Source: a virus | DNA length: 64,000 nucleotides | Strand: one strand, 5' to 3' | IMG/VR virus record: IMGVR_UViG_3300036852_000134 | Location: 18,865-82,864 of that record | Part shown: piece by piece, positions 35 to 54,000 of the stretch | How positions within the stretch are numbered: the stretch's first letter is position 1 | How the letters are laid out: every line of letters starts with the position of its first letter | Notes under the pieces: generated by a model | Databases searched by the model: none | Seen by the model: the letters and a program-made list of their open reading frames with translations, nothing else | What the model was told of the DNA's origin: nothing | Made by a program: the position numbers and the translations under genes

Positions 35-43
35 TGCGCACCT

Positions 44-715
44 TCACTGCCACCACGGGGGCGGAGATAGAATTTCGGTGCGGCAATCTATGCTTGTTCG
101 CGCGGGCTCACAAGGCGGACGGTTGGCAAACGCGAGGAGCTGGGCTCTGGCGTCTTCAATTGGCTGGGTTGTATCGATCTCGATGACCGGAACACCTCGC
201 TCATTCAGGACTTTCTTGGCAATTTCAATGGCAGGCATCATCAAGCCCACCATCCTTGACCTGTCCTCGAACCTGGTCTCGCGCACCAGCCGGCGGGCTG
301 CGTTGCGCTCCTCAACGATGTGCTGCGGGCACTTGGTGAAGGCCACACCGATAGACACCGGCATCAGCTCGAAGTAGTGGCGGAGCTCGTTGAGGTCCTT
401 GCCCATGTCGTTCAGGCGCCAGCCGAAGCCTAGGCCGCGCTGGACGAGGCCGGTCTGGATGTAGGGGCTTTGGCCTTCCATCCGGGCTACGGTGGCCATC
501 TTGCGCACCGAGCGGTTGACCATGCGCAGGGCGGCGCCGAATGTGGCGTGCGGCTTGATGAGGTGGAAGAGGCGCGTGCACTCGTTGCAGAAGTCGAGCC
601 AAGAGGCCGGGGGTAGGCGGTTCTCAATGGTGATGGCGTGCGGGCCGTAGAGCGGGTCGCAGAGTGTTGACTTGCCACTCCCCGGCGGGCCGGCGCAGTC
701 CAGCCAAGCGGTCAC
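44..715 (-). CDS. P-loop kinase (nucleotide/sugar kinase-like)
   Basis: N-terminal Walker A GPPGSGKST; overlaps the stop of the upstream gene. Confidence 0.7.
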   Translation of the reverse strand: MTAWLDCAGPPGSGKSTLCDPLYGPHAITIENRLPPASWLDFCNECTRLFHLIKPHATFGAALRMVNRSVRKMATVARMEGQSPYIQTGLVQRGLGFGWRLNDMGKDLNELRHYFELMPVSIGVAFTKCPQHIVEERNAARRLVRETRFEDRSRMVGLMMPAIEIAKKVLNERGVPVIEIDTTQPIEDARAQLLAFANRPPCEPARTSIDCRTEILSPPPWWQ

Positions 716-1143
716 GCTGCCACCACCGTTCCGCCGAGCCCGCCGATCCCCTGCGTGTCATCGGCCCATGTGATGGTCTTCATATCGCCGTCGATGCCGC
801 GGTGGTCGTAGAGGGTGTCTCTTACGTCCTTGGGCATGATGCGGTCGCCGTTGTTGCGGCGGGCGTAGCCTTCGTGATCCACGTAGAAGTTGTGGGGGTT
901 GGGCTTTGACTTGCGGGAAGGGAGGGTGGAGACGTTTGAGGCCGGCGGCGCGGCGCCGCGCCGCCGCGGAGCGTCGGCTGCCGTCAGGCGGGCCGCAGCA
1001 TCGCCACCGTACAACGTGCCGAACGCCAGCGCCATGAGGTTAAGCCAGGCGATCTGCTTCTCGACAGGCCACTCTGTGTCACTGGGCGGCAGCTTCTTGA
1101 TCAGCGCCTCAATGAGGGGATCGGCGGATTTCGGACGGGCCAT
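712..1143 (-). CDS. Hypothetical protein (MARPKSADPLIEAL...)
   Basis: ATG overlaps the TGA of the methyltransferase; the longer track ORF extends into that gene. Confidence 0.7.
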   Translation of the reverse strand: MARPKSADPLIEALIKKLPPSDTEWPVEKQIAWLNLMALAFGTLYGGDAAARLTAADAPRRRGAAPPASNVSTLPSRKSKPNPHNFYVDHEGYARRNNGDRIMPKDVRDTLYDHRGIDGDMKTITWADDTQGIGGLGGTVVAA

Positions 1144-1814
1144 CAGGCTGCCTCCGGACGCAATTCTACGATCCGGTAGTCCTCGTGATACCCGGCCTGA
1201 TCTCGTGCGACCGTCCAACCCTGGAGCGCGCTGGCTATCAGGGCGTGGCTCACAGCGAACGGGTGGTTGCGAACCCGAGCCGTGAACACGATCCGCTGCC
1301 TCGCCAGTCGTTGCATCTCCTGCAACATGCGGACGATGCCCTCGGGGCCGTGCTGCTGGATGATCCAGCGGGTGATGCGGCAGTTTACGGTTGCATCCAC
1401 ACACTTGCCTGGGAACTTGGACGCGAGCAGGTCACCATGGAACAGCGCCCAGCGCGCGAGCGGCCCCTTCTCCGTGGCGATGGCCTCAGTGGGGTTATTC
1501 ACCTTCCTGCCGGCGAGAGCCAGCATGTCGGCGGAGATGTCAACGCCACGGACGACGAAGCCCTTGCGGTCGTAGAAGTCGAAGAAGCGGCCAGTGCCGC
1601 AGGGGGCGTCGATGACCCAGGAACCGCTGGGCATGTCGTCGAGGAAGCCCTCAATGATCTTCTGCTCGGCGATCCACTTGGGGGACTGCTCGCGCTTGGC
1701 GTCGTAGCCAGTGGCGACTTGGCCGGTGTACTTCAAGGCGCCACCCTGCTGGGGAGCCGGCTGCTGCGGCTGCGACCCGGCGGGGGGGAGGTATTCCATG
1801 AGGGGGTTGGGCAT
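1143..1814 (-). CDS. Class I SAM-dependent methyltransferase
   Basis: VIDAPCGTGRF motif I, GVDISADML, GDLL. Confidence 0.85.
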   Translation of the reverse strand: MPNPLMEYLPPAGSQPQQPAPQQGGALKYTGQVATGYDAKREQSPKWIAEQKIIEGFLDDMPSGSWVIDAPCGTGRFFDFYDRKGFVVRGVDISADMLALAGRKVNNPTEAIATEKGPLARWALFHGDLLASKFPGKCVDATVNCRITRWIIQQHGPEGIVRMLQEMQRLARQRIVFTARVRNHPFAVSHALIASALQGWTVARDQAGYHEDYRIVELRPEAA

Positions 1815-1817
1815 GCG

Positions 1818-2609
1818 TCAGCGCTCGTTTTGGATGATCTCATAGACCTGCCGGTCCGTTATGTGGAACTGCCCGGCGATCACAGTCTTTGGAATCTTGG
1901 TAGCATGCAACCGCATGATCTCGCGATTTCGGGCTTCACGCGCCAATGCCTCTGCACTGCAACCCGTCTCTGATAATGCGTTTTCGAGCGACCACCCGTG
2001 TTCCACGAGGCGTTGCCGTACTTTGTGATATGAGACCGTTGTTCCAGACAACTCCCCCGCCTTCTTGAGCGGCATCTGCTGTCCACCATATTCCACGACG
2101 CGACAACTGCGACGGTTCAGTGCCTGCTCCTTAGCGGTAGCCCACCTGCAATTACCGGGCTCGTAATTGCCGTCATTGTTGACGCGGTCGATGGTGAGCT
2201 TGTCAGGACACTCGCCCATGTCCTCTAGGAAGTTCTCGAACTTCTTCCAGCGCTCGCATACGGTGATGCCGCGGCCGCCATAAGCTGCATACTCAGCCAC
2301 TCGGTCATTTGAGCACCGCTGGCACATGGCTTCCCATGCACGATAAGCCCGTGATCGCCCCTTTCGGATCGATGACTGCCCGTGCGTCGTGAACCTCTTC
2401 GATGTACTCTCTTTCTGATAGCAGCCACAGCTGCTGATTTGGCCCTTGCGCAAGTTCTGGCTCAGAGCGGTCGTCTCTTGACCGCAATCGCAGCGACATA
2501 GATAGCGCATCTTCTGTTGGCCGGATGGGAATATATGGAGGCCTACTTCTGATATCACTATGAGCCGGCCGAACCGGTGACCGATGATGGGGATCGTAAC
2601 GCCTCTCAT
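1818..2609 (-). CDS. HNH-like homing endonuclease with C-terminal HTH
   Basis: RFGRLIV, CRCDCG, SCGC, YGGRGITVCERW, TIDRVNNDGNYEPGNCRWAT; ATGA overlap at 2606-2609. Confidence 0.85.
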   Translation of the reverse strand: MRGVTIPIIGHRFGRLIVISEVGLHIFPSGQQKMRYLCRCDCGQETTALSQNLRKGQISSCGCYQKESTSKRFTTHGQSSIRKGRSRAYRAWEAMCQRCSNDRVAEYAAYGGRGITVCERWKKFENFLEDMGECPDKLTIDRVNNDGNYEPGNCRWATAKEQALNRRSCRVVEYGGQQMPLKKAGELSGTTVSYHKVRQRLVEHGWSLENALSETGCSAEALAREARNREIMRLHATKIPKTVIAGQFHITDRQVYEIIQNER

Positions 2610-3325
2610 TTGTAAAACCTGGATACCCACGGGTGGTCTATCTGAACCTGCGGCTGGCTCGGCTCACGCGCACCAGGGAAGCTGACGATGCAGGCGTTCT
2701 CGGGAAGCTCAGAGCCGACGCCCTTGCTACCCAATCTGCCTGCACCATAGATACCCCAGTTCGCGTCGAAATGCGCCTCGTTCCATTCGAGGCGCTCGGA
2801 TATCCACGCTTGCTCTTTGCCGCCAAACCTCCAGTTGAACCAGCGGTCGGTTTGGCCTGGGATGAAATCGTCCCACAACTCCTGGCGGACGCCGGCTGAG
2901 AACAGCTGCACGCTCGACTGGTAGAAGGCGCGGCCCGGCAATCCGAAGTTGGGATTTCTCCAAAACACCGCCGGCTCCGTCCTAGCGGCGATGTGGTCGA
3001 GGCTTCCCGTGATGACCACGTCGAGGTCGAGGCTAAGGATGCGCTCCCCAAGATTGGCTCGCGCCCATTCCCCGTTGTGTTGCATCAGCCTTATGCAGAC
3101 CGTGCCGGGGACGTGCCTGCGCCAGTCGAGGGGGACACAGTCGATGCCGTCGATCTTGTCGTCAGTGACGCACACGAAGCGATGAGGCAGGCTCAGATGG
3201 CGCGCCACCATCGATTTCAGAATGTGAACGTGCTCGTGACGAAACGTGTAGCCGCGGCGCTGGCTGTCGCGGGCTGGATCAGACCAGAAGTAGGTGCAGA
3301 CGACCAATTCCATGGAGCTACTCAA
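2606..3325 (-). CDS. GT-A fold glycosyltransferase
   Basis: RFVCVTDD, DxD motif LSLDLDVVITGSLD, SSV, QAWI, IVSFPG. Confidence 0.8.
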   Translation of the reverse strand: MSSSMELVVCTYFWSDPARDSQRRGYTFRHEHVHILKSMVARHLSLPHRFVCVTDDKIDGIDCVPLDWRRHVPGTVCIRLMQHNGEWARANLGERILSLDLDVVITGSLDHIAARTEPAVFWRNPNFGLPGRAFYQSSVQLFSAGVRQELWDDFIPGQTDRWFNWRFGGKEQAWISERLEWNEAHFDANWGIYGAGRLGSKGVGSELPENACIVSFPGAREPSQPQVQIDHPWVSRFYK

Positions 3326-3635
3326 GGCCTAGTTCCTGGCTCACTGCAGTAAGCTCGTCCAACGCCCTTGCGCGATCAGTTACGACGCCAAAAGCTTCCA
3401 GCTCCATCTCCGTCCACTTGACCGCGGTGAACGGCCCCACGACATAGAGCCCCTTGTCGGTCTGCGGTATGCACCAGTAGCAGTCGTGGGCCGGCACATA
3501 TCCAGCACGCCAGTTCGCCTTGTTGGCTATGAGCTTGGCGTAGAAGTCCTCGCCCATCTCTCTGATGTAGAGGGAGAGGCGGGACTCCGCGAGGTCGCGG
3601 AGCTTGGAGTGGAAGGCTTCGGTTTTAGCGACCAC
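3318..3635 (-). CDS. Hypothetical protein
   Basis: ORF in operon context, overlapping the GT start. Confidence 0.55.
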   Translation of the reverse strand: MVAKTEAFHSKLRDLAESRLSLYIREMGEDFYAKLIANKANWRAGYVPAHDCYWCIPQTDKGLYVVGPFTAVKWTEMELEAFGVVTDRARALDELTAVSQELGLE

Positions 3636-3752
3636 TTCTTAGTTCCAGACTTTGGATGCGCTGCTCAAGCCGCCTAATGCGGCTAGTCAGATAGCCTATG
3701 ACGAAAAATGCCATGGCCAGGAAACCATAGATGGCGACTGCATCCCACTTGG

Positions 3753-4817
3753 TCATGCGGCCTCGCGTTTCTCAACGAGGCCGATTATATCAACTACCTG
3801 CTGCGCTGCCACTGTGGCACAGCCTAGTTTCCCACTGAATATCCGGATGATGTTGTCGCCGATCAACTCGACTAAGGTTGGACGCCCATCGTCCGCATCT
3901 CGACCGGGAAGCACGGCGCGAACCGTCCACATAGACCCCACGAATTCAGCATCCCTGAGACCCGGAATGAATTTCACCCCAGCCTCGATGAAATCCTGGA
4001 CCCTTGTGTGCGCAGGGTTAACCACCAGCCCGCAATTCAGGTAGCCCCTCAGTTGCCGAGGAATCGCTGGCCGGAGCCCGACGTTTGCATGGTGGATGGC
4101 ATGCTTCACATGCCCCATGACATGCAGGTCGGTATTCCCGTAAGGGTCTAGGCAGCAGAACTCCCCGTCCATGACGACGATGCCGATGCCGCGGAACTTG
4201 GAAGGCATCCGCAGCAAGGGCTTCTCGACCACCTCGAACTGAAACGGCTCCACTCTTGCACCGAGGTCGAAAGCAACCGCGTTGGTGGAAGCGTAGGCGG
4301 CGACAACGATTGCATCGAACTTTGAACGCAAGGATCGTGTTGCCGACTTCAGGTGGACCGTTACACCGGACTCTTGCAGGCGCTGCGCAACGATTGCACG
4401 CAAGCGTTGGAGGTCGAGCCGCGCCTCGTCCACCGAGAGCACCACGTTGACAGCATCCGCGTTGATCATCGTCGGGCTGGCGTCCACGAAGGACAACCCG
4501 TGACGCATGCAGAAGGCGACATACTCCAGGCCTGAAACCTTGCTGCCTTCCTTGGCGATGGCGTAGTAGTGGCGGCCACCGTCGATGATGGCGTCACCGT
4601 ACTCAGCACGGAAAGAGGTGAGAGCGGCCTGGCATTCAGCGACGGTGGCCGCGCTCCTTGGGTAGTGGAATCCCTCATGGGTTCTGGCCTGGTTCACTGC
4701 CGATGCCGCGCCCATGACCTCATTGGGCTCGTAGAGGTGAACATCATGGCCAGCGCGAGCGAGATGGACGGCGGCGGTGCATCCAAAGAGGCCGCCCCCA
4801 GCAACACAGACCCGCAT
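3753..4817 (-). CDS. FAD-dependent oxidoreductase (DAO/glycine-oxidase-like)
   Basis: N-terminal Rossmann motif VCVAGGGLFGCTAA..L...GHDVHLYE; C-terminal FSGK; TGATG coupling at 4817. Confidence 0.85.
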   Translation of the reverse strand: MRVCVAGGGLFGCTAAVHLARAGHDVHLYEPNEVMGAASAVNQARTHEGFHYPRSAATVAECQAALTSFRAEYGDAIIDGGRHYYAIAKEGSKVSGLEYVAFCMRHGLSFVDASPTMINADAVNVVLSVDEARLDLQRLRAIVAQRLQESGVTVHLKSATRSLRSKFDAIVVAAYASTNAVAFDLGARVEPFQFEVVEKPLLRMPSKFRGIGIVVMDGEFCCLDPYGNTDLHVMGHVKHAIHHANVGLRPAIPRQLRGYLNCGLVVNPAHTRVQDFIEAGVKFIPGLRDAEFVGSMWTVRAVLPGRDADDGRPTLVELIGDNIIRIFSGKLGCATVAAQQVVDIIGLVEKREAA

Positions 4818-5518
4818 CACCACTTCCACTGCGGCATGTCGAACAGGCAACTCTCACGGTTGGCGACCACCTTGATGCCGCGCTTCATCGCCTCATGGAT
4901 GAAATACTGGATGCCGGGGCGCTGGTAGACGTACTCATTCTCAGCAGCCTGCATGATGCCCCACAGGCCGATCATTGGAATGCCATCAGTCTCTGCGTCC
5001 ACGATCGACTTCGCGAACATATAGGCGATGCTGCTGGTGAACTGGCACGGATCGAAGATGCCGTCATGGTTCGGGATCTCGGCGATCCTTTCGCCAACAA
5101 TGGCCCCATCTGGTCCCTGGACCTTCACCTTCTGGAGCGTGGACGTGCCCCTGAGTTCCTTCTCGGGATAGAGCCGACCGCCCTTGAAGGACTTAAGCGC
5201 CTTCTGGTCTCGCAGCCACACGAACGGCTGCTCACTCAGATACTTGAGGTATGGGAAGGGCCGGCTCGGGTCCTCCAAGGGAAGGTGGACTTCGAAGACC
5301 TCGTCAACGCGCGGCAGCGCCGTCGCGTACTTGCTCATTCCGTATGGCGTATTATCCGGAGAGCACGCCAGAATCTTCCAGCTCGCGTCTCCGTAGGGAG
5401 CAGCATCCTTAGTCGTCGGATTGCTGCCGACAATGGCCAAGCCACGAACGGCTGTCTTGGGTGCGGCCGGGAGGACATCCCCACCGGCCGCCTTGGTCTC
5501 TATGAGATCATCAAGCAT
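4817..5518 (-). CDS. Putative Maf/GT29 (sialyltransferase-like) fold transferase
   Basis: LAIVGSNPT..., TSSIAYM.AKSI, IGLWGI, EY.YQRP pattern resembling the IVG.GPS / I.L.G.D motifs of GT29/Maf-type enzymes. Confidence 0.5.
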   Translation of the reverse strand: MLDDLIETKAAGGDVLPAAPKTAVRGLAIVGSNPTTKDAAPYGDASWKILACSPDNTPYGMSKYATALPRVDEVFEVHLPLEDPSRPFPYLKYLSEQPFVWLRDQKALKSFKGGRLYPEKELRGTSTLQKVKVQGPDGAIVGERIAEIPNHDGIFDPCQFTSSIAYMFAKSIVDAETDGIPMIGLWGIMQAAENEYVYQRPGIQYFIHEAMKRGIKVVANRESCLFDMPQWKW

Positions 5519-6384
5519 CAGAGGCCCGTATCCCTCGGAGCTGACACGTTGACCCAGTCGATATCGAGAAGGCTGGCGCCCCCAGTGTCGTACCCATAGA
5601 TGCACGGAGTAAGCGCGGTGGAACTATTGCAAGGATCGCTGATGATCCCCTTAGGAACGCCGTCCACGTAGAACGTGACCGTTCCGCCCGTGTCGGAGCT
5701 GCTGCGGTGCAGCTCGGCTTCCAGGGTCACATAGGTGTTGTCGGTGGGGGTCACAGTCGTCAACTGCACCGATTGCAGTGTGTCGCCATCGACGGCAAAG
5801 CCGTGCCATCCCGTGGAGCCGCCGAGGTTCCAGCCGATGCCAAAGGCATTGGTCGCGGCTGCGCCGTCAGCGCTGCCTCCAGTGTCGAATACCGGCATCT
5901 CGGCCGAAGTCGTATCGGTGAAGCCGACGAAGACGCCGTGCTCGCCGCCCGTGTAGATGGACTTCTTGATGCGCGCGCCAAAGCGCAGTCGGCCGGAATG
6001 GGCGCCAGGACCCTGGTTGGGTTTCCAGGACAGCTGAGGACCGACCATGCCGAATGTGGTACCCGCGACAGTTGTCGTGGTCGTGCTCTGCGACGGTGTG
6101 AACCTGAACACACCATTCGTGCCGGCGGTAATGAGACCCGTCGTACCAGTATCACCTTTGCGGGTGATGAAATACTGACCGGCGGTTCCGGTGTCGCCGA
6201 GCAGATCGGCGCCGACACTTGCATAGAAGTCATCGAAGATGGCGGTGGTGTCAGGAGCGCCAGGCATGACGACTGCGGGCTTGCCATCACCGCCTGCGAC
6301 GAAGCCGTACGGAGCCAGGACCTGGTCGTCATTGGTGAGGCCTAGCGCCCGTCGATGGATGCCCTTGAGCATGGACTTAGACAT
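5518..6384 (-). CDS. Putative virion structural protein (beta-rich, lectin-like), six DTG motifs
   Basis: G/T/S-rich beta pattern with FDDF, VTFYVDG and LDIDWV; located in the late operon. Confidence 0.7.
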   Translation of the reverse strand: MSKSMLKGIHRRALGLTNDDQVLAPYGFVAGGDGKPAVVMPGAPDTTAIFDDFYASVGADLLGDTGTAGQYFITRKGDTGTTGLITAGTNGVFRFTPSQSTTTTTVAGTTFGMVGPQLSWKPNQGPGAHSGRLRFGARIKKSIYTGGEHGVFVGFTDTTSAEMPVFDTGGSADGAAATNAFGIGWNLGGSTGWHGFAVDGDTLQSVQLTTVTPTDNTYVTLEAELHRSSSDTGGTVTFYVDGVPKGIISDPCNSSTALTPCIYGYDTGGASLLDIDWVNVSAPRDTGL

Positions 6385-6470
6385 TGCGGGGATTCCCTTG
6401 CTTAGTGCTTAGTGCTGTGGGAGGTTGCGGGTACGCATACTCACGGCTCACAGGAGCCGGATTCAGTTGC

Positions 6471-6629
6471 CTAGTGCTTGGTTCTGGACGTCGTGCGGTC
6501 GGCCGGCAGTGGCAGAACGCCGTCGAGGGCGCAGCGTCCGGTGCGCAGCAGGGAGCGCTCGGGCTGGCCACGGCCGTGCTGAGCGCCGCCGATGTGGAGG
6601 CGGTCGTTGACGATCTCCAGCATGGTCAT
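6471..6629 (-). CDS. Small hypothetical protein (MTMLEIVNDRLHIGG...)
   Basis: GGACAAGG upstream of the ATG. Confidence 0.35.
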   Translation of the reverse strand: MTMLEIVNDRLHIGGAQHGRGQPERSLLRTGRCALDGVLPLPADRTTSRTKH

Positions 6630-6681
6630 GCGGGCCTTGTCCGTGCTAGCTGAATGTTGAGACACCGGGGGAAGAACTACG

Positions 6682-7596
6682 ATGCGAGATCTGCCCAGGC
6701 TATCCGACGAGCAACGCTCCGACCTCGCCAATGCTCTTCGGCGCACTTACTTCACGGCGTTCGGGCTCACGTACCTCGGATCGCCAGCGTTCGCTGGCGA
6801 CCTCGCCGACCACGTGGACGGTCGGTACCGACACTTCGCGGGAGACGTGGTGCCGTGGCTGCAGCGTCACCTCGCGGGCCTTGCCACCCATTCCGTCGCG
6901 GAGGTCGGCTCCGGCACCGGATCGTCCACGGCGGCGCTCGCGCCGCACGTGCGCGAGATCAGCACGTTCGAGATCGAAGAGAACTCAATCGCAGCCGCCA
7001 AGGCGCGCGCCGAGATCCTCGGCTACCGCAACGTCACGCATTGCCGCAGCCTGTTTACTGCCGACGAGGCGATGCGGATTGGCGTCGTCGATGGGGTGAT
7101 GCTGGCTGCAGTTCTTGAGCACTGCACGTTCGATGAGTGCATCGGCCTGCTCCGCGCCTCATGGGAAGCGCTCAAGCCGGGTGGATGGCTATGTGTGGTT
7201 GATACGCCGAACCGCCTCTGTCCGGTCGACTACCACACCTCGTTCCTGCCGTTCTACTCCATGCTGCCGATCGAGGTCCGCATCGCCTACGCTTGCCGCT
7301 CGCCGCGCCCCGAGTTCGGGCAGACGTTCCCCGGTGAGGATGACGCGATGCGCATGACCCGCTGGGGGTGCGGCATCTCCTACCACGAGTTCGAACTCGG
7401 CATTGGCCCTGACGTGCACAGCATGGTCATCGCCGATGGTTGGGAGCGCGAGATAGAGGCCGCGATCGGCATCCTTCCCGAGGACGCCGCGGCCGAAGGG
7501 CAGATCAAGGCGTTCGCACCGAATGTAAACCGCGCCTTCGCCAGACGGACGTTTTACTTTGTACTGCGGAAGCCACTCACGCCGCCTCGTACATGA
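6682..7596 (+). CDS. Class I SAM methyltransferase, opposite to the late operon (moron-like)
   Basis: VAEVGSGTGSST, AAVLEHC, LKPGGWLCVVDTPNR. Confidence 0.85.
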   Translation: MRDLPRLSDEQRSDLANALRRTYFTAFGLTYLGSPAFAGDLADHVDGRYRHFAGDVVPWLQRHLAGLATHSVAEVGSGTGSSTAALAPHVREISTFEIEENSIAAAKARAEILGYRNVTHCRSLFTADEAMRIGVVDGVMLAAVLEHCTFDECIGLLRASWEALKPGGWLCVVDTPNRLCPVDYHTSFLPFYSMLPIEVRIAYACRSPRPEFGQTFPGEDDAMRMTRWGCGISYHEFELGIGPDVHSMVIADGWEREIEAAIGILPEDAAAEGQIKAFAPNVNRAFARRTFYFVLRKPLTPPRT

Positions 7597-10500
7597 AGTT
7601 GACGAACACCGTCTCGCCGTCTGCGATTGGCGTGTTGTTGTCGTAGTCGAGGCAGCCACCCAGCGTCGTGCTCATCGCAAAGGCGTGCTGCATGTTGCCG
7701 GCATTGAACGACCTGCCCACGCCGTAGGCCACATTCGACCCAGCTTGCGCCGTCACGGGAAGCGTAAACTGCAGGATGCCGGCGCCGGTGCCGGCGGTGG
7801 TGATGGTGATGGTCACCGTGCCCATGATCATCTTGCCGATCTGCAGAAAGCGGCCTGCTCCACTGGCCGACGTGAGAGTTCCAGTCTGGGCGCTAATCGT
7901 TGGCGTGAACGCGCTCCAGGCTGCAGCGGCGATGCCTCCATATGGCAGGCCTGTGCAATTGGTGAGCGTACCGCTGGATGGCGTTCCAAGAGCCGGCGTC
8001 GTCAGCGTCGGCGAGGTTAACGTCTTGTTGGTCAGCGTCTGGCCGCCACCTACCGTCACCACCGATGTGGCGTCGGCCCCCGCATTGGTGACGCGCAGAT
8101 CGCCAGTGCCGACCGTCAGAATGCCGGAGGTGTGCGTGGCAACCCAGTTGCCGTTGGCAAAGTTGAACGTGCCGCCGGTCGCCAGGTGCAGGTCCGCCCA
8201 GCCAAGAGCCGTCGTGCCGAGCGCACTGCCGTCGTTGGTGACAGGGGACCACGCGCTGTCAGTCAGGACGACGCGAGCCGTACCGGCGGTGCGGAACCGT
8301 ACCGGCTGGGCTGCCGTCACCGTCCCGATCTCCAGCACAGCTGCGGTCGTCTGGAAGAAGTGGGTGCCTCCGAATGATCCTAACTTGGTGATGCTGCCAG
8401 ACTGCCCCTGTAGCCCCAGGAGATCGGTATCCGATGCGGTGTTGGCGACATGCAGCTTCGCCTGCGTCAGATCGGTGGAGCCTATTGCGACGGCACCACC
8501 ACGGGCGTAGATGCCAGCTGACGCCATGACGCTGTTGGTGCCGGCGAAGTCGAGGCAGCCCGCATTGGCGATCGACGTCGGCGAGGTAACGGCGCCGTTG
8601 GCGTTGACATTGACTAGACTTACAGGGCCGTTCACGTTCGCATCGGTTACGATGCCATGCTGCTGTGACGGTATCCCCTGCACGTCAATGGTTAGGATCT
8701 GAGCCGTAGCACCAGACAGAGCCGGCGATGGCGCAGGGAAGATCACCATCGCCGTATTCGAATTGACCTTCTGAACGTGATAGTAGGCGCCGCCTGCCTT
8801 GATCCAGGCCGCGCCCCTGATCTCGGTCGTGAAGGCCGTGCCGGAGCCGGTGACGGTGTTGCCTGAGGTTGAGATCGTTCCTGTCAGGCTGGTCAGGTTG
8901 CCGGTCTCCGAGAACGTCACGGAGCCAGTGGTCTCGACTGTAGCCTCGTCGAGATTCAGCGCGACAACCCGCGCCGTAACGTCGCCTGAGCCGGTAGCGT
9001 TTACGAGCAACAGGTACTGACCGACTGCAACCTGATCCGGGTCGATCAGCGCAATGTTGAAGCGGCTGGAAACAGTCGAGCCAGGGTTGAACGATGCCCC
9101 GTCTGTTTTGGTGAAAGTCTGCGTATCGCCCGCATATATGTTGCTGATCGATACGCGATCTATGCCGCCCCCAGACGCATCCTCTATCATAGCGACACCG
9201 GCCCGGAATGTCGCACCGAGCGAGGTGTCCCAGCCGTTGTCCGAGTAGACGCCGCCGTTGACCTGGACCTGCGTTCCGGCCTCTATGATGAACCCGTCGA
9301 AGCCGTTGAATCGCGCCTGGCAATTATTGAGGATGACGTTCTCGACGCGAGGCCGCGGCTGGCCAGGGAACCAGGCGGAATTGGTCTGGAACTCGCGCGT
9401 CTGGAACCCGTAAAAGCGGTTGGCGTTGGCAATGACGTTGTCGAACTGAATGTTCGGGCTGGCGGTCAAGGCGCCGATCTCGCAGGCGACAACGGAGCCG
9501 TTGGATACCAGCACCTGCTTGGAGGGCGCGTTCGCCCGCGTGTCGAACTCGACGGCGTCGCCGTCGTTCTGGAACACGCCAGCAGAGATTAATCCAAGGC
9601 CGTAACCGTCGCTCGACGCGTGCGTCTTGAAGTCGCCGTTTATCGTGAACCCATCGAGCGTGCAATCAAGGGCGGTCGAGAACTCAATCCCCCAGAACAC
9701 GTTCTGGAAGTGGAAGTCGGAGAACGAGGTGTTCTCTGCATTCGAGATTTGCGCGCCGTAGTTGCGCGTCTCGCTGCCGTCGTAGCCATCGAGGAACAGG
9801 CCGCTGATCTTGCAGTGGAACACACGCTCTATAGCGAAGGCGATCGGCCATGGATCAGTGCCCAACGCATCCGGCGTATACCCATCCACCCTAATATTGT
9901 CTATCGTGCAGCGTTCGAGCTGGCGGAATTCGAACGCATGCTGGTACATCGCCGTACCGTTGTTCGAGATGCTTTCGGCAAAGATGTCGCGGCACGTAGA
10001 GTTGTTCGTGAACTGGAATAGTACCGCCTTGCCACTGCTGGTGATGTGCAGGTCGCTGACATGATGGCCATCTCCGCTGGCCACCCACACCGCCCAGTTC
10101 ACATGATTGCGGAACTTGACATCGCGCACCGTGATGCTGTCGGCAGTCTCAATGTAGATGCCGGGCCATTGGAAGTTGACGTTCGTGTAGGACGCGGCAA
10201 GCGAACTGCGGTTTCCATCAACGATGCCGCCTTCGAATGTTGAGCCTTCCGACCCAGTCGTGAACGAGAGCAGCTTGGAATGTGCGCCGTCGGTTGCTGT
10301 GCGTCTCTTAATCACCGCCTCCGGGTGCATGATGATATGCACCGGGGTGGAGATCGTGATCGGGTCAATGAGATAGGTTCCCTCCGGCACGAACACGATG
10401 CCACCGGCATTGAAGGCGGTGGACAGAGCGGAGGTATCGTTAGTAACGCCGTCTCCAGCCGCGCCACCCAACGTGTTGGCCTGTAGAAACGGCAGATCAC

Positions 10501-10600
10501 TGAGTTGCAGCTTGCGCGAATTACTCCCGACGACGCCGTAGATATAGTCGGAGAGGCTCGGCGTGCTGGATGTGAGGTTTGATAGCGTCTTGTCGGCCAT
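7577..10600 (-). CDS. Tailspike/receptor-binding protein: pectate-lyase-like beta-helix plus fibre-like C-terminal modules
   Basis: GAAGDGVTNDTSAL...VFVPEGTYLI, beta-helix rungs, LTNKTLTSPTLTTPALGTP, W..FTPT..G.F.QIGK. Confidence 0.85.
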   Translation of the reverse strand: MADKTLSNLTSSTPSLSDYIYGVVGSNSRKLQLSDLPFLQANTLGGAAGDGVTNDTSALSTAFNAGGIVFVPEGTYLIDPITISTPVHIIMHPEAVIKRRTATDGAHSKLLSFTTGSEGSTFEGGIVDGNRSSLAASYTNVNFQWPGIYIETADSITVRDVKFRNHVNWAVWVASGDGHHVSDLHITSSGKAVLFQFTNNSTCRDIFAESISNNGTAMYQHAFEFRQLERCTIDNIRVDGYTPDALGTDPWPIAFAIERVFHCKISGLFLDGYDGSETRNYGAQISNAENTSFSDFHFQNVFWGIEFSTALDCTLDGFTINGDFKTHASSDGYGLGLISAGVFQNDGDAVEFDTRANAPSKQVLVSNGSVVACEIGALTASPNIQFDNVIANANRFYGFQTREFQTNSAWFPGQPRPRVENVILNNCQARFNGFDGFIIEAGTQVQVNGGVYSDNGWDTSLGATFRAGVAMIEDASGGGIDRVSISNIYAGDTQTFTKTDGASFNPGSTVSSRFNIALIDPDQVAVGQYLLLVNATGSGDVTARVVALNLDEATVETTGSVTFSETGNLTSLTGTISTSGNTVTGSGTAFTTEIRGAAWIKAGGAYYHVQKVNSNTAMVIFPAPSPALSGATAQILTIDVQGIPSQQHGIVTDANVNGPVSLVNVNANGAVTSPTSIANAGCLDFAGTNSVMASAGIYARGGAVAIGSTDLTQAKLHVANTASDTDLLGLQGQSGSITKLGSFGGTHFFQTTAAVLEIGTVTAAQPVRFRTAGTARVVLTDSAWSPVTNDGSALGTTALGWADLHLATGGTFNFANGNWVATHTSGILTVGTGDLRVTNAGADATSVVTVGGGQTLTNKTLTSPTLTTPALGTPSSGTLTNCTGLPYGGIAAAAWSAFTPTISAQTGTLTSASGAGRFLQIGKMIMGTVTITITTAGTGAGILQFTLPVTAQAGSNVAYGVGRSFNAGNMQHAFAMSTTLGGCLDYDNNTPIADGETVFVNFMYEAA

Positions 10601-10872
10601 CAGAACGTCACTCTCTTGGTGATGATCGTTGCATCTGTCAGCGACACTTCATCGCCTTCGAGCAGCAGGTGTCCGTCTTCATCGCCCTCAAGCAGGAGCG
10701 CATCGGCGCCTCCGGTCTGCATGTCGCCTTCGAGCAGTAGAAATGAGATTCCAGATATGCCTGTCGTCTCAGCGATACGCTTGGTTTGTCCGCCAGCTGG
10801 CGTTCCCTGCACGCGCGCGGTCTGTCCACCGGATGCTGCACCTGATACCCGCTTGGTGGTGGTCGTGGCCAC
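10600..10872 (-). CDS. Small virion-associated protein with LLLEGD x3 and TKR(V/I) x3 repeats
   Basis: Internal repeats; GTG 1 nt after the upstream TGA; stop overlaps the tailspike ATG. Confidence 0.65.
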   Translation of the reverse strand: MATTTTKRVSGAASGGQTARVQGTPAGGQTKRIAETTGISGISFLLLEGDMQTGGADALLLEGDEDGHLLLEGDEVSLTDATIITKRVTF

Positions 10873-10873
10873 G

Positions 10874-11266
10874 TCAGCTCTTGATCCAGATGTAAAGTCT
10901 TCCACCGGTGAGCACGACGCCGGTATCGGCTGGCGCCACCCTGATCTTCAGGCGATCGCCAGCGAGAACCACGGGCACATAGCCCGTATCCGAAGCGTTC
11001 CCCGCGCCAGTAACGAAGCTCACGGCCTGCCGCGTTGCGCGCACGAACTGCGTGGCTAAGTTTGCCGCCGCTGCGTCATAGATCAGCCAGCCCACCCCCG
11101 TATCGAGCGTGTCAGGCAGCACGGAGACCTGGAGCGTGGCAACCTGGCCGGTGTCGGTGGAATGCCACCAGCGCAGCTGCTGGATTTCGCCCATCATATG
11201 CGGGCCAGTATCCTGGAAGGTGACACCTCCAGAGACGTTCACGTCGAAACGCTGACGGGTGATCAT
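10874..11266 (-). CDS. Putative small virion protein, five DTG motifs
   Basis: 130-aa beta-rich ORF in the late operon. Confidence 0.7.
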   Translation of the reverse strand: MITRQRFDVNVSGGVTFQDTGPHMMGEIQQLRWWHSTDTGQVATLQVSVLPDTLDTGVGWLIYDAAAANLATQFVRATRQAVSFVTGAGNASDTGYVPVVLAGDRLKIRVAPADTGVVLTGGRLYIWIKS

Positions 11267-18796: not shown

Positions 18797-19223
18797 GGCG
18801 CACCTCGCTCATACGATTGATCCTGCCGTCTGCTGTCATGTGGCAACGACGGCATAGGAACTTGATATTTTCCGGGTTGTTGTTTGCGGTATCGCCGTCG
18901 ACGTGATGTCGTTCCGGTCTCTTAGACGAACCACAGGACCCACACGGCTTCTTATCCGGGAACCATCTCAACGCTCGCGAACGCCCGCTGCGCTCACTCA
19001 CATCATCGCCTTTCCATTTATGGTGGCGATCCCGCGACTTGGCTTCGCCGATCTTTCTCAAGTGCTCCGGCGATTTTGGGCCGCGACCAAATGTTGAAAG
19101 CCTGCACTCCTGAGAGCAATATTGCGGTCCACGACGAGACGGCCGAACGTACCGTTCAAACGACCGGCCGCAGCACACACAGCTTCCGCTCCAATTTGGC
19201 GTGGCTTCGTGCTTCACAACCAT
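18777..19223 (-). CDS. HNH homing endonuclease
   Basis: CxxCG..F, YCSQEC, CGSCG, HHVDGDTANNNPENIKFLCRRCH. Confidence 0.85.
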   Translation of the reverse strand: MVVKHEATPNWSGSCVCCGRSFERYVRPSRRGPQYCSQECRLSTFGRGPKSPEHLRKIGEAKSRDRHHKWKGDDVSERSGRSRALRWFPDKKPCGSCGSSKRPERHHVDGDTANNNPENIKFLCRRCHMTADGRINRMSEVRRGISFR

Positions 19224-51020: not shown

Positions 51021-54000
51021 TCATCGCGGTTCTTGCGTCGTGCCTGGCGGCAAAACTATCGACGGCATGGTGGTTGGATCATCCGGCCGGCGATAGGTTG
51101 GACTTCTGCGATCCCTGAATTTCCTATCCCAAGCCCCTTGCAACCCTAGCATATTCTCTTGCTGGATCATAGCAACAACGCGCCCTTGTATTTCTATCCA
51201 CCTAGCGCGGTCCTGTTGATAATCGCCTATCGGAGCTTCCGTGACATCGTCTTCCAGCCTGTTGCGTGAGAAGCGGCGCAGCAACTCTTCGTACAGGCCA
51301 CTGTGAGACGCCTGGAGTTCACGGTAGAGCGCTGCTGGATCGCGAACGGGACGCCCAGCCCAACCTGGAACGCCCGTGTCGCGCAGGGCATTGTACATCT
51401 CAATGGCGGTGATGCGCTGCATGAGGTTCTCGACCTGAGTGCGAAGCGCAGGCGAGAGAGCGATGGGAGTGCCCCGCGTTCCTGCGTCCATGCTGATTAC
51501 GCCTTGTCCTGCCATCTCGCGCCGCAACTGGAACAGGACGCGGTCGATTTGCTGGGCTCGGTTCAGGGGGTGATGGATGCGATCCCTGGTCGGGAAGTGC
51601 TGCATCAAAACAGAGTAGATGGTCCGGTCCGGCGACAAACCAACAAGGTAAGTGCGCAATGCATCGGCGTTCGCGCCATCACGCATGAGCTGATTATAGC
51701 CCGCAGCAGCCTGAACGTATGGGCTTTGGCCATCTCTCATCAGGCGCCTGACTTCGAGGATAGACTCTGTGCTGCGGTACGGGTCCCAGGTGAAGCGATT
51801 TACCATCGGGCCTATGATCGGCACCTCCCGCCAGTCGTCGGTTCTCGGTCCGCGGCCCAAGTAGTTGGAGAAGAGTTGCACCTCACGACCCCAATAGCCG
51901 AGCTGGGAGTTGAGCGCGTAGTCGATGACAACCGGGGAGGCCTGTATGCCTATTCCGTTCAGCGCCTCTGCCCACTGCCTCGCGAACTCAGATGAGAACG
52001 GGGTATGACGCATGTAGGGCGGCAGTTCACGCAAACCGAACGGAGTGAGTGGGCGCCCCGTTCTTGCATCCACGCCATACCGCAGCGCTTCCCAATCCCG
52101 TAGAACTTGCGGTGTAAGCGGAGGCGTATGAGTAGCGACGATACCGTCTCTGATCTTCTCGGCTGCGCGCGGGTCCCCACGACGCACTAGATCCATCAGA
52201 GCCTCGGTGATGATCGCCGGCATGCCGAACTCGAACCGCTTCAGCCTGACCCATACTCCGAACATCTTGAACACCCAATGAGTGTTCTTCACCTCTCTGT
52301 TGTTGTCGGCGTATTCCTCCGGATCGTCACCGCCACCGTTTAGCATGGAGATCGACGCTCCCATCGCTGCGACGATCGACAGGATGACCCAGGAACGAAT
52401 GCCGCGTCGCATGGTCCGCTCGTCCGCCTTGGAGTACATGCTCTCAAACTCAGTCGGCCCAGGATTGCCGCGACGGCGAAGCATATGGCGGCCCCACATC
52501 TTCAGGGCTTCAATGTCGGTCTTGCCCATCGTCCAGCGTCCGACGGCTGCACCAGTGAGGGCGCCAGCACCCATCGCCCAACCGACCGGACCACCTAAGA
52601 CGGCAGTCGCAGCAGCCGCACCGCCAGCGCCCAACAGCCCGCCTTCAAGCATGGGGATCTGGATAATCCTGCCGCGGTCGCCTTCCACCATCCACGTCTG
52701 CCGGTAAGCCTTAGAGATAGCCTGCACGTTCCCGTTGAAAAAAGCCGTCATCCGCATAATGGCACCTGTCAGGAACCCGCGCCGGTCAAACGGCAGCACA
52801 TCGTTGGCCGTGAACACACCCTCGCGCATGGCGTCAATCAAAGGAAGGTTGGGGTCATATTGCAGAGCGCGGCGCGTGGCGTAGCTAGGAGTGCCTAGAG
52901 CCTGCCTAGTGATGTAATCGGCAACGCCGCGCCGCCCTGCGGTCTCGGTGAACTCTGAGACCTTGGCAAACACGGCTTCGGCGCCGGCTCCGAACAGAAG
53001 GCGCCCAGCCATCATGCCACCGGAGAAGCCGAGCGTGGCGCCCACAACGGGGCCGACAGCTGGCGCTGCGACTACGCCACCAAGACCGCCAGAGAGAGCG
53101 CCGACTGTGCCGCCGATGGCCTTACCAAGACCACGACCGATCCGAGTCGAAAGCGCCTTGTCCGCCTCCTTCAACTGCTGGATGGAGAACATCAGGTCCG
53201 CTCTGATAGCGTGGAGCTCGGCCATGCGGACAGCAAAGTCAGGCGACTTGCGATCGAGCGCCTTCATCCTGCGACGTGCAGTTTTCAGCTGGCCCTCAAG
53301 TCGCGCGATGCTTTCGTCCCCCCGCAGATGGCGTGCCAAGCGCTCGCCGATGGCGCCGCCAATCGAGGCGCCTGCTGCACCACCAAGGGAACCGCCGACC
53401 AAGCCTCCAACAACGGGACCGGCGACTGTGCCGAGCGTGGCGCCAGCGGCAGCACCACCAAGAGACGTTCCGGTTCCTGCCACAGCGCGGATGTCAACGG
53501 TCTGGTAGCCCTTGTTGCGCAGGTCCGAGAGGTCGAGGTTGCGTCGGTTGCCGCTACGTTCGGCAATTGACGCCGTCAACTGGCCGCCGCCGATCAGGCC
53601 AAGCCTGTCCTGCATCTGTGCCACGTCGGACGGCTTGATGCCGAACATCTGCATGAACGCGCGAAACTTCGGATAGCTAGACAGTTCGTGCCAGGCGCCG
53701 CGAGCATGCGTGATGATGGGTGGCGCTCCGGTCAACCACCAGGACATCTGCATGTCGCCAGCGACGTTCCCTAGCATGTAGGCTGGATGCAGGATGACGC
53801 CAGCGCGTAGAACCGCCGCAGGAGCGGCAACCATCTCGACGAGAGCCCCGCTCATGCCACGGCCGAGTGTGTTCATGGCCGCGAGCAGGCGGCGGCCATT
53901 CTCCACGTCGTTGAAGCGGACCAGTTTGCGCTCTCCCTTCTCGAAGAAGGGGAGCAAGATGGCGCCCTTACCTTTGTGTGTCGGGTCGTAGAGGATGTGG

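Follow-up and report, generated by a model that had tools for sequence, protein, structure and literature searches.

The window analyzed here, 64,000 nucleotides of virus record IMGVR_UViG_3300036852_000134 (positions 18,865 to 82,864), comes from a complete phage genome of 82.9 kb, which has terminal repeats. Near its start, the minus strand carries a tailspike gene group and an enzyme block. The tailspike group begins with a 130-aa protein containing five copies of the tripeptide Asp-Thr-Gly (DTG; 10874..11266, −), followed by a 101-aa ORF without DTG (10600..10905, −) and a 1007-aa tailspike with a pectate-lyase-type β-helix, also without DTG (7577..10600, −; PF12708, E 4e-13). Pfam and PHROG searches returned no match for the 130-aa protein, which may be a spike adaptor: its homologues (125–146 aa, 4–6 DTG) lie upstream of a fibre or spike gene in relatives G001–G005. 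The tailspike has no homologue in any compared genome; these have DTG-rich fibres instead (29 DTGs in a 656-aa fibre of G002, 35 in a 911-aa fibre of G027), which suggests that it is a recent swap-in. A 288-aa protein with six DTGs (5518..6384, −) is predicted to adopt a ConA-like lectin/glucanase jelly roll (AF2 pLDDT 84, pTM 0.86), with Foldseek matches to legume lectins, β-glucanases, and SO2946-like phage tail domains. Judging by gene position and fold, the 288-aa and 130-aa proteins would both be virion components.

The enzyme genes are embedded in the late structural operon, where stop codons overlap the starts of following genes. Directly coupled to the 288-aa gene—its ATG overlaps that gene's stop codon (TGATG)—is the gene for a 233-aa protein (4817..5518, −; AF2 pLDDT 91) with a Maf/GT42 sialyltransferase-type fold. 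VIA-align matched it to CstI (2p56, Z 9.3), Maf (5mu5, Z 9.0), MptE (8sd5, Z 8.5), and GT29 enzymes (Z 6–7); the top matches all fall in one superfamily, at a Z of about 9 that is modestly above the background of 7–8, and Pfam gave no match (MptE-like included). Further along the block are an FAD-dependent oxidoreductase of the DAO family (3753..4850, −; PF01266, E 4e-16), a 105-aa ORF without homologues in relatives (3318..3635, −), and a GT-A-type glycosyltransferase (2606..3325, −; phrog_1962, E 2e-11) whose DxD residues, D100 and D102, are invariant among 6 homologues. The next ORF (1818..2630, −) was rejected as a modification enzyme: it encodes an HNH homing endonuclease (phrog_374, E 5e-67) inserted in the block and patchy across relatives. 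The block continues with a conserved-core SAM-dependent methyltransferase (1143..1814, −; PF13649/PF08241); a conserved 143-aa protein (712..1143, −) with no match in family searches, homologues in G001, G003, G004, and G027, and a gene position directly upstream of the ConA-like gene in some relatives; and a conserved-core P-loop NTPase, possibly kinase-like (44..715, −), with an invariant Walker A motif, GPPGSGKS. On the opposite strand, a second SAM methyltransferase (6682..7596, +; PF13649/PF08242) has no homologue in any of 23 compared relatives and is probably genome-specific and outside the DTG system. A search of the phage for sugar-nucleotide synthesis genes found none, including no CMP-sugar synthetase and no nonulosonic-acid pathway.

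A preliminary description of this locus had linked a Maf/GT29-like ORF, an FAD oxidoreductase, a DxD glycosyltransferase, a methyltransferase, and a kinase to DTG-bearing virion proteins. Structural alignment supports the fold of the first, the TGATG coupling is a real overlap, and the glycosyltransferase and core methyltransferase likewise stand. The FAD oxidoreductase, which two complete DTG-rich genomes (G001 and G027) lack, is an accessory part. The kinase is at most a possible one: the P-loop protein matches AAA_33 weakly (E 0.0015, below the Pfam cut-off) and kinase families at E 0.0015 to 0.07.

DTG is concentrated in five late proteins, which together hold 37 copies (20 + 6 + 5 + 3 + 3). 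A gp12-like nozzle outside the window contains 20 (expected 1.0, P 2e-19), the 288-aa protein six (composition expectation 0.47, Poisson P 1e-5), and the 130-aa protein five (expected 0.10, P 9e-8), with 0 of 5000 shuffles reaching the observed count in either of the latter two; a gp11-like nozzle adaptor and a 103-aa protein, both outside the window, hold three each. All other proteins combined (~23,500 residues) contain one, against about 5.6 expected. The capsid, portal, internal proteins, and tailspike have none (0 vs 0.72 expected for the tailspike), and the carriers are confined to the tail side. In an unbiased scan of all tripeptides, DTG ranked first in the 288-aa and 130-aa proteins, and four of the five carriers have it as their leading tripeptide; across the DTG-carrying tail-side proteins of the clade, it is over-represented 13 to 50 times relative to chance. 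Counts and sequence contexts in the 288-aa and 130-aa proteins, and the motif's absence from the tailspike, were as the preliminary description listed them; its picture of two DTG proteins proved too small, since nozzle, adaptor, and 103-aa protein share the pattern. Elsewhere in DTG-rich genomes the motif is depleted, modestly overall (12 observed vs 21.6 expected in non-carrier proteins, P about 0.02) and with 3 against 14.6 expected in the three largest; DTG-poor genomes have 44 against 51 expected.

The excess arises at the peptide level, not the DNA level, as had been proposed. The coding (−) strand contains GAYACNGG 47 times, with 37 of these in frame in the five genes, compared with 13 on the + strand. 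Codon usage for D, T, and G at DTG sites matched the background of the same genes (chi-square p = 1.0, 0.05, and 0.20).

The sites are conserved in position within loops that otherwise vary. DTG columns score 0.87–0.95 for conservation, flanking columns 0.4–0.55, and the alignment as a whole averages 0.6. In the ConA-like protein, which has 176 metagenomic homologues, the sites are kept in 26–39 of 39 aligned sequences. The commonest single-residue variant is DSG, and insertions bring in new DTGs. In line with the placement envisaged earlier, all six DTGs of the predicted jelly roll lie in loops between strands.

Loop placement would also follow if DTG were purely structural—a tight Asx/β-turn, a helix cap, or a Ca2+-binding loop favored by chance in this clade—with the enzyme block acting elsewhere, for example on DNA or on polysaccharide of the host surface. 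D-x-G often forms turns, and ConA-like lectins bind metal through loop Asp residues. Outgroup nozzles have typical turn residues at the DTG positions (e.g., NGS, SGS, and GGS), and the fibres that G001 and G002 encode have short repeats punctuated by DTG. We nonetheless consider this explanation unlikely. The carriers differ in fold, spanning the nozzle and connector (PDB 8ck1), a ConA-like jelly roll, small proteins, and, in relatives, repeat fibres; that one tripeptide was converged on across them argues for recognition in trans, and a structural need would not hold five or more unrelated folds to a single exact tripeptide. It also sits poorly with the absence of DTG from this phage's capsid, portal, internal proteins, and tailspike, and with flanks that contain no Asp-box-like or Ca-loop-like pattern. 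Against DNA as the target stand the lack of a thymidylate-synthase-like gene (pyrimidine hypermodification) and the position of the block among late structural genes.

The trait is all-or-none among 150 nozzle relatives. The uncultured T7-like phages that carry it group in a single clade with good support, corresponding to one change on the tree; 133 of the 150 nozzle representatives have 0–3 DTGs, and in cultured phages nozzles and adaptors carry 0–2. Homologues outside the clade lack DTG at equivalent positions, so the folds can do without it, which is a further point against a structural requirement. All six sites are missing from the ConA-like homologue in G012. These homologues—cultured nozzles and adaptors, about 130 DTG-poor nozzles, and the G012 protein—thus agree with the earlier expectation that phages without the enzyme block would also lack the motif. 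The DTG-rich orthologous set recurs in 12 related records, and in 12 whole DTG-poor genomes no tripeptide is enriched in orthologues of the carriers.

The enzyme genes track this distribution. Genes for the P-loop protein, the methyltransferase, the GT-A glycosyltransferase, and a 164-aa protein are present in 8/8 DTG-rich records covering the region and in 0/12 DTG-poor genomes. The Maf/sialyltransferase-fold gene is present in all seven DTG-rich records that reach its position, always directly downstream of a DTG-rich gene, and weak Maf-like paralogues occur in 4 of the 12 DTG-poor genomes. The co-occurrence of enrichment and enzyme cluster, put forward as a check in the preliminary description, therefore holds as a count, but because the carriers are a single clade, it is co-retention rather than repeated co-occurrence: one event followed by long co-retention, with which any clade-specific gene would correlate equally. 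This single origin of the association is also what a structural role for DTG would allow. The siphovirus TVV-S20 encodes a 36%-identical glycosyltransferase in a similar glycosyltransferase/sialyltransferase-like/methyltransferase block and has no DTG excess.

Because DTG excess is always accompanied by the sugar-transferase-like and methyltransferase block, the motif is probably a tag read by one of those enzymes. Our best explanation is that a phage enzyme reads DTG as a sequon, and we assign this a probability of about 0.5. DTG, with DSG tolerated, would be a short linear tag read in trans on virion tail-end proteins: the nozzle, the adaptor, the ConA-like protein, two small proteins, and, in relatives, fibres. 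The likeliest reader would be the phage's own late-expressed enzyme set, with the 233-aa Maf-like protein as the best candidate. In the scheme we infer for the modification, its acceptor residue, its writing enzyme, and its purpose, the first step would take place in the cytoplasm, where the Maf/sialyltransferase-fold protein would add a first sugar to the Thr hydroxyl; the GT-A transferase would extend it, the methyltransferase would trim or cap it, and the P-loop protein and 164-aa protein might have activating or accessory roles. Given that no sugar-nucleotide synthesis genes were detected in the phage, the donor would be host-supplied. Exposed tail loops would then be densely coated with adducts, perhaps for shielding, stability, or adsorption.

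The same counts bear on a sequon for something other than a sugar, with Thr phosphorylated by the P-loop protein, or Asp or Thr methylated by the conserved methyltransferase, and the glycosyltransferase-like genes acting elsewhere. Both genes are co-retained as strictly as the glycosyltransferase gene, and tolerance of Ser for Thr suits a hydroxyl-directed kinase equally well. A 2026 paper reports methylation of a phage tail protein as important for infectivity (PMC13445384), which favors this alternative. We hold it to be improbable, given the weak kinase matches of the P-loop protein and the fact that the gene translationally coupled to a substrate gene encodes the Maf fold, not the P-loop protein or the methyltransferase.

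The argument from recognition in trans would apply equally if DTG were a docking motif for a nonenzyme partner. Such a partner could be a chaperone for assembly, a decoration protein or lectin-like protein (the ConA-like protein is one candidate), or a component of the host surface bound at low affinity and high avidity during adsorption. The trait is accompanied by a clade-specific ConA-like lectin-fold protein, and the restriction of carriers to the tail side fits as well. Yet a tripeptide with unconstrained flanks is a poor docking site for a protein. The ConA-like protein also carries DTG, and G027, a complete DTG-rich genome, lacks its gene; docking further leaves the conserved glycosyltransferase, methyltransferase, and Maf-like genes without a role. 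Docking therefore strikes us as quite improbable.

If DTG is an enzyme-read sequon, it would resemble several known systems in part. The Bacteroidetes general O-glycosylation sequon, D-(S/T)-(A/I/L/V/M/T), likewise has three residues with Asp first and Ser/Thr second, but the analogy drawn in the preliminary description fails at the third position, where Gly is disallowed. That system is also periplasmic and acts on exported proteins, whereas virion proteins here are cytoplasmic, and no enzymes related to it were identified in the DTG phage. Flagellin O-glycosylation by Maf is closer in fold: the 233-aa protein is similar to the central domain of Maf (5mu5) as well as to GT42 sialyltransferases. 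Maf enzymes are cytoplasmic, act on Ser/Thr of a protein that later polymerizes outside the cell, and commonly have methyltransferase genes as neighbors. The phage protein differs in its size (233 aa vs about 630 aa), in having no Pfam MptE-like match, and in coming from a phage that encodes no nonulosonic-acid pathway; to our knowledge, flagellin glycosylation by Maf follows no strict sequon, whereas a strict tripeptide is implied here.

The substrates belong to a T7-type tail. The main DTG carriers are clear homologues of the gp11 adaptor and gp12 nozzle (phrog_394 and phrog_376; PDB 8ck1, E 5e-20 and 1e-5), and homologues outside the clade have 0–3 DTGs. Among phages, mycobacteriophages glycosylate their virions with glycosyltransferases that they encode (Freeman et al. 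2023, summarized in PMC12619734). There, glycans sit at the C-termini of capsid and tail-tube subunits, whereas the candidate sites here are an exact tripeptide in internal loops of tail-end proteins, with none in the capsid; the candidate enzyme set here is a Maf-fold, GT-A, methyltransferase, and P-loop combination unlike that of the mycobacteriophages. The two cases agree in that phage-encoded glycosyltransferase genes adjoin those for structural proteins, and their products are proposed to modify, in the cytoplasm, virion proteins of the phage itself.

The IMG/VR source record is a complete genome of 82,864 bp with direct terminal repeats, of which the window covers bases 18865–82864, and its late genes occupy the minus strand. 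In the order of transcription, they run from the 130-aa gene, a 101-aa gene, and the gene for a 1007-aa pectate-lyase-type tailspike to the 288-aa gene (window 5518–6384, minus strand) and its adjoining block of enzyme genes, and then to the small and large terminase and a T7-type portal (PF12236). A scaffold-like protein, a 277-aa capsid protein, and 103-aa and 185-aa proteins follow, and the order closes with a gp11-like adaptor (phrog_394, E = 2e-35), a gp12-like nozzle of 1133 aa (phrog_376, E = 3e-114), and internal virion proteins, one with an SLT domain. These family matches identify the adaptor and nozzle as T7-like tail tubular proteins, and the pair also matches a solved tail structure, PDB 8ck1 (8ck1_A, E = 5e-20; 8ck1_E, E = 1e-5). 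The enzyme block is embedded in the late operon, between the tail-side genes and the terminase.

Counts of the tripeptide Asp-Thr-Gly (DTG) were compared with per-protein expectations computed from composition, using Poisson P values. The preliminary description had reported six DTG in the 288-aa protein, five in the 130-aa protein, and none in the tailspike, and these counts were reproduced (0.47 expected, P = 1e-5; 0.10 expected, P = 9e-8; and 0.72 expected, respectively). Extending the count to the full proteome added three carriers encoded outside the window: the nozzle (20 DTG vs. 1.0 expected, P = 2e-19), the adaptor (3 vs. 0.09, P = 1.3e-4), and the 103-aa protein (3 vs. 0.14, P = 4.2e-4). 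The five carriers together hold 37 DTG; the remaining proteins (~23,500 residues, including the capsid protein, portal, tailspike, and a 4297-aa protein) hold one, against ~5.6 expected, and the capsid protein has none. In an unbiased scan of all tripeptides, DTG ranked first in four of the five carriers and third in the remaining one. All 37 of 37 sites have Gly as the last residue, and their flanks follow no pattern. The 4297-aa protein is a single ORF (window 51021–63914, minus strand) with 1 DTG vs. 1.2 expected; it has partial blastp matches in two related genomes, G001 and G027 (216 and 272 bits), where long ORFs (3446 aa in G001) are the candidate location of these matches.

Two general explanations for the excess were set aside. 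Of 47 occurrences of the DNA string GAYACNGG on the minus strand, 37 are in-frame DTG sites; the plus strand has 13 occurrences. Codon choice at the DTG sites does not depart from the background for D, T, and G in these genes. An excess confined to five genes, in frame and on a single strand, with codon choice at background, is not a DNA-level motif, as the preliminary description had proposed in calling it a peptide-level one. A lineage-wide amino-acid bias is likewise rejected, given that the capsid, portal, scaffold, internal proteins, tailspike, and 4297-aa protein have 0–1 DTG each.

The carriers belong to unrelated folds. The 288-aa protein has 176 metagenomic homologues but falls in no named family. 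Its AlphaFold model (pLDDT 84, pTM 0.86) is a ConA-like lectin/glucanase jelly roll. Its Foldseek matches include many legume lectins and beta-glucanases at probability 1.0 (TM 0.45–0.6) and phage proteins in BFVD at TM up to 0.64; it also resembles SO2946-like domains, which occur terminally in phage tail proteins. All six DTGs of the model lie in predicted loops between strands, in keeping with the suggestion that they would occupy turns, and its sole low-confidence stretch comes directly after a DTG. Homologues of the 130-aa protein in related phages have 125–146 aa and 4–6 DTG and are always encoded directly upstream of the fiber or spike gene. From position and fold we infer that the 288-aa and 130-aa proteins are virion components. 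A ConA-like homologue in the DTG-poor genome G012 (L136:4246–5022, plus strand) is encoded between the large terminase and the portal rather than beside a fiber gene, a placement compatible with membership in either the head or the tail. In the nozzle (L002, the part of this genome outside the window, 5489–8890, minus strand), a ~250-residue N-terminal insertion at residues ~100–350 distinguishes the DTG-rich clade from outgroups; it contains 8 of the 20 DTGs and, by eye, looks like a candidate discoidin-type sugar-binding domain. Searches by tblastn against cultured phages with the 288-aa, 130-aa, and P-loop proteins returned no match, and single-sequence pattern scans of a viral contig collection (with the 130-aa protein, P0127, and P0130) found nothing.

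The tag is conserved more strongly than its surroundings. An alignment of 39 homologues (43% mean column identity) keeps individual DTG sites of the 288-aa protein in 26–39 sequences; most relatives have a seventh site, and additional DTGs occur within insertions. Most sites in ten nozzles of the clade (mean pairwise identity 62%) are kept in 9–10 sequences. Column profiles were taken from two alignments, one of 14 nozzles and one of the 39 ConA-like homologues. In both, the commonest residue reaches 0.87–0.95 in each column of the motif, against an alignment mean of 0.6 and values of ~0.4–0.7, mostly under that mean, in the six columns on either side. Single-residue variants are mainly DSG; otherwise the motif is lost whole. 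Such behavior is characteristic of a short linear motif that sits in variable loops and requires a hydroxyl residue at its center.

Homologues elsewhere do without the tag. In three phages known from culture or assembly, DTG counts for the nozzle and adaptor are 0, 0, and 2. A full HMMER search recovered ~7,700 nozzle relatives, the best 150 of which are bimodal, 17 with 7–18 DTG and 133 with 0–3, and the identities of DTG-rich and DTG-poor representatives to the query overlap. A 61-nozzle tree separates the 20 DTG-rich rows from all others at one branch, supported at 100, and one change is therefore enough to explain the trait. At the DTG positions, outgroup nozzles have ordinary loop residues, and in the G012 ConA-like homologue (29% identity) each of the six sites is substituted or deleted. 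Homologues from phages lacking the enzyme block lack the DTGs as well, the outcome that the preliminary description had set against refutation, and the nozzle, adaptor, and ConA-like folds do not need DTG. These homologous folds weigh against reading DTG as a structural or metal-binding turn, which we consider unlikely. Two familiar turns of that kind also fit poorly: The 37 sites show no preference for S at −2 or for T and W at +4 and +5 from Asp, as an Asp-box (S-x-D-x-G-x-T-W) would, and their flanks do not match a Ca-loop repeat.

Twelve DTG-rich records (G000–G005, G022, and G026–G030) were compared with 12 whole DTG-poor genomes. In the regions covered, the same orthologues are enriched in the rich records: the nozzle (10–22 DTG), the adaptor (3), a 90–110-aa protein (3–4), the ConA-like protein (5–10), and the 125–146-aa protein (4–6). 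Three of these genomes add a DTG-rich fiber-like protein, of 656 aa with 29 DTG in G002 (L036:4429–6399, minus strand), 471 aa with 9 in G001 (L030:2449–3864, minus strand), and 911 aa with 35 in G027 (37–2772, plus strand); in G001 and G002 the DTGs fall in short repeats of the form DTG-h-x-x-R-L-x-x-I-Q-x-D-V-DTG. None of the compared genomes encodes a homologue of the DTG-free tailspike found here, a pattern suggestive of a recent swap. No protein of the 12 DTG-poor genomes has a comparable DTG excess, and an unbiased tripeptide scan of the same genomes found none enriched in tail proteins, which rejects a different sequon in these relatives. Prophage relatives found with a nozzle profile in Alphaproteobacteria-type MAGs are all DTG-poor; they make Alphaproteobacteria of soil or freshwater the likely hosts of the clade. 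A ConA-like profile search of genome contigs for prophages found nothing.

Outside the carriers, DTG is scarcer than expected in DTG-rich genomes (12 observed vs. 21.6 expected; 3 vs. 14.6 in the three largest), and the corresponding figures for DTG-poor genomes are 44 vs. 51. No consistent difference of this sort separates the two sets when D, T, and G are put in another order. These counts are a suggestive, not strong, sign that DTG may be avoided in noncarrier proteins.

The enzyme block was counted in rich records that cover the region (n = 8) or reach the Maf-fold gene (n = 7) and in the 12 poor genomes, leaving out the deep-branching DTG-rich nozzle representatives P0124, P0130, P0132, P0134, P0137, and P0138. 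Four genes are present in 8/8 rich records and 0/12 poor genomes: a P-loop protein (window 44–715, minus strand; weak AAA_33 match), a methyltransferase (1143–1814, minus strand; Pfam methyltransferase domains), a GT-A glycosyltransferase (2606–3325, minus strand; phrog_1962, E = 2e-11), and a 164-aa protein without a family match encoded directly left of the window. The 233-aa protein (4817–5518, minus strand), with a Maf/GT42-type fold, is present in 7/7 rich records. The glycosyltransferase has an invariant DxD (D100 and D102) in addition to its phrog_1962 match; it has no Pfam or PDB sequence match, and its ESM Atlas neighbors, GT8 and Nucleotid_trans, are leads only. The glycosyltransferase and methyltransferase named in the preliminary description hold; its FAD oxidoreductase (3753–4850, minus strand) matches PF01266 and is missing from the complete genomes G001 and G027, and its kinase is better called a P-loop protein.

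Two further genes in the region are distributed differently. A homing endonuclease of the HNH type (1818–2630, minus strand; phrog_374), which ends in an HTH domain, is inserted between the glycosyltransferase and methyltransferase genes and is patchy, with copies in G001, G002, G027, and one DTG-poor genome. A second methyltransferase (6682–7596, plus strand; Pfam methyltransferase domains), between the 288-aa gene and the tailspike, is unique to this genome, with no homologue among 23 compared relatives, and is probably a moron.

Co-occurrence of DTG enrichment and enzyme cluster, the test suggested in the preliminary description, is found for the core genes, with one qualification: Because all DTG-rich phages fall in one clade, the tag–enzyme link reflects a single origin and co-retention down to ~40% identity, not repeated co-occurrence. 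The block may instead serve DNA hypermodification, a role that fits poorly with its place in the late operon and with a phage genome that has no thymidylate-synthase-like gene. The glycosyltransferase by itself does not specify or predict the tag. The siphovirus Tetraselmis viridis virus S20 (NC_020840.1, L163 26950–33219), sought as an independent case, has a glycosyltransferase/"sialyltransferase"/methyltransferase block in its structural operon, between capsid and head-closure genes; one of its glycosyltransferases is 36% identical to the one here, and its structural proteins show no excess of DTG or any other tripeptide.

The 233-aa gene always follows a DTG-rich gene. In this genome that neighbor is the 288-aa gene, whose TGA shares bases with the ATG of the 233-aa gene, confirming the TGATG coupling described earlier. 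The AF2 model of the 233-aa protein (pLDDT 91) has the fold of the Maf central domain and the CstI–CstII sialyltransferases: VIA-align places first CstI (2p56, Z 9.3, rmsd 3.7, 158 aligned), then the flagellin glycosyltransferase Maf (5mu5, Z 9.0, rmsd 4.1, 169 aligned) and MptE (8sd5, Z 8.5), with GT29 sialyltransferases at Z 6–7 and thiamine pyrophosphokinases also among the best. All top structural matches belong to one superfamily. Foldseek returned CstII at probability 0.99 (TM 0.41–0.43), and the ESM Atlas gave a lead only (0.83). The Maf/GT29-like assignment accordingly stands as a fold and finds no counterpart in sequence: No Pfam family matched the protein at E up to 1, PF01973 (MptE-like) matched nothing in the whole genome, and profiles of the Maf-like, P-loop, and glycosyltransferase proteins against a solved-structure bank gave nothing useful. 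Invariant residues are G32, S33, E77, H79, Y91, T162–S164, E196, Q200, and R201. The phage genome has no CMP-sugar synthetase gene. Weak matches to Maf-fold paralogues occur in 4/12 DTG-poor genomes (G007, G014, G017, and G020; e.g., L139:6905–7897, minus strand); these are distant and longer (268–410 aa), with a C-terminal extension.

Convergence of at least five unrelated folds on one exact tripeptide, kept as a unit in variable loops, tolerant of Ser for Thr, and absent from homologues elsewhere, from the capsid, and from internal proteins, argues that D-(T/S)-G is recognized in trans. The obvious candidate for a writer would be the late-operon enzyme set, and within it especially the Maf-fold protein, whose gene is coupled to that of a carrier; O-linked modification of Thr would be the most economical chemistry. 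We give this reading, of DTG as a sequon with the late-operon enzymes as putative writer and Thr as the O-linked site, a probability of about 0.5. A fuller scheme is more tentative: a clade-wide cytoplasmic system with a strict D-(T/S)-G sequon, in which the Maf-fold protein would write and the GT-A glycosyltransferase and methyltransferase elaborate, giving a coat restricted to the tail end, with dozens of adducts per subunit and off-target DTGs purged. A reader in trans could instead attach some other group, for example by phosphorylation or methylation, which we regard as distinctly improbable, or be a nonenzymatic partner docking on DTG, for which we see at least as little chance.

If DTG is a sequon, it would be the first one defined for phage virion modification and, with a Maf-fold writer, the first for a Maf-type enzyme. 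It would offer a handle readable from sequence, predicting the phages that coat their tails and the proteins and residues that carry the coat, and would make the function of the coat testable, whether in protection from proteases, from immune recognition by host or animal, or from receptor-mimic decoys, or in adsorption. A three-residue tag with a small 233-aa Maf-fold writer could prove useful for site-directed protein glycosylation and would bear on site selection by Maf enzymes, a question of long standing. Even a structural or docking role would leave an all-or-none, 20-fold tripeptide enrichment across unrelated folds, kept across a clade diverged to ~40% identity, without a ready explanation.

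Our literature searches turned up no account of such a tag in phage proteins. The analogy drawn in the preliminary description to the Bacteroidetes sequon, D-(S/T)-(A/I/L/V/M/T), fails at the third residue, where the invariant Gly of the DTG sites lies outside the allowed set. Mycobacteriophage virions offer a closer comparison: According to a summary of Freeman et al. 2023 (PMC12619734), they are glycosylated by phage-encoded transferases, with glycans at the C-termini of capsid and tail-tube subunits. The genes here are alike in that phage-encoded glycosyltransferases lie beside structural genes; the sites differ, since the capsid protein has none and those of the nozzle, adaptor, ConA-like protein, and small proteins lie in internal loops. 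A strict internal tripeptide confined to tail-end proteins and paired with a Maf-fold enzyme would add a new form to the known kinds of phage virion glycosylation.
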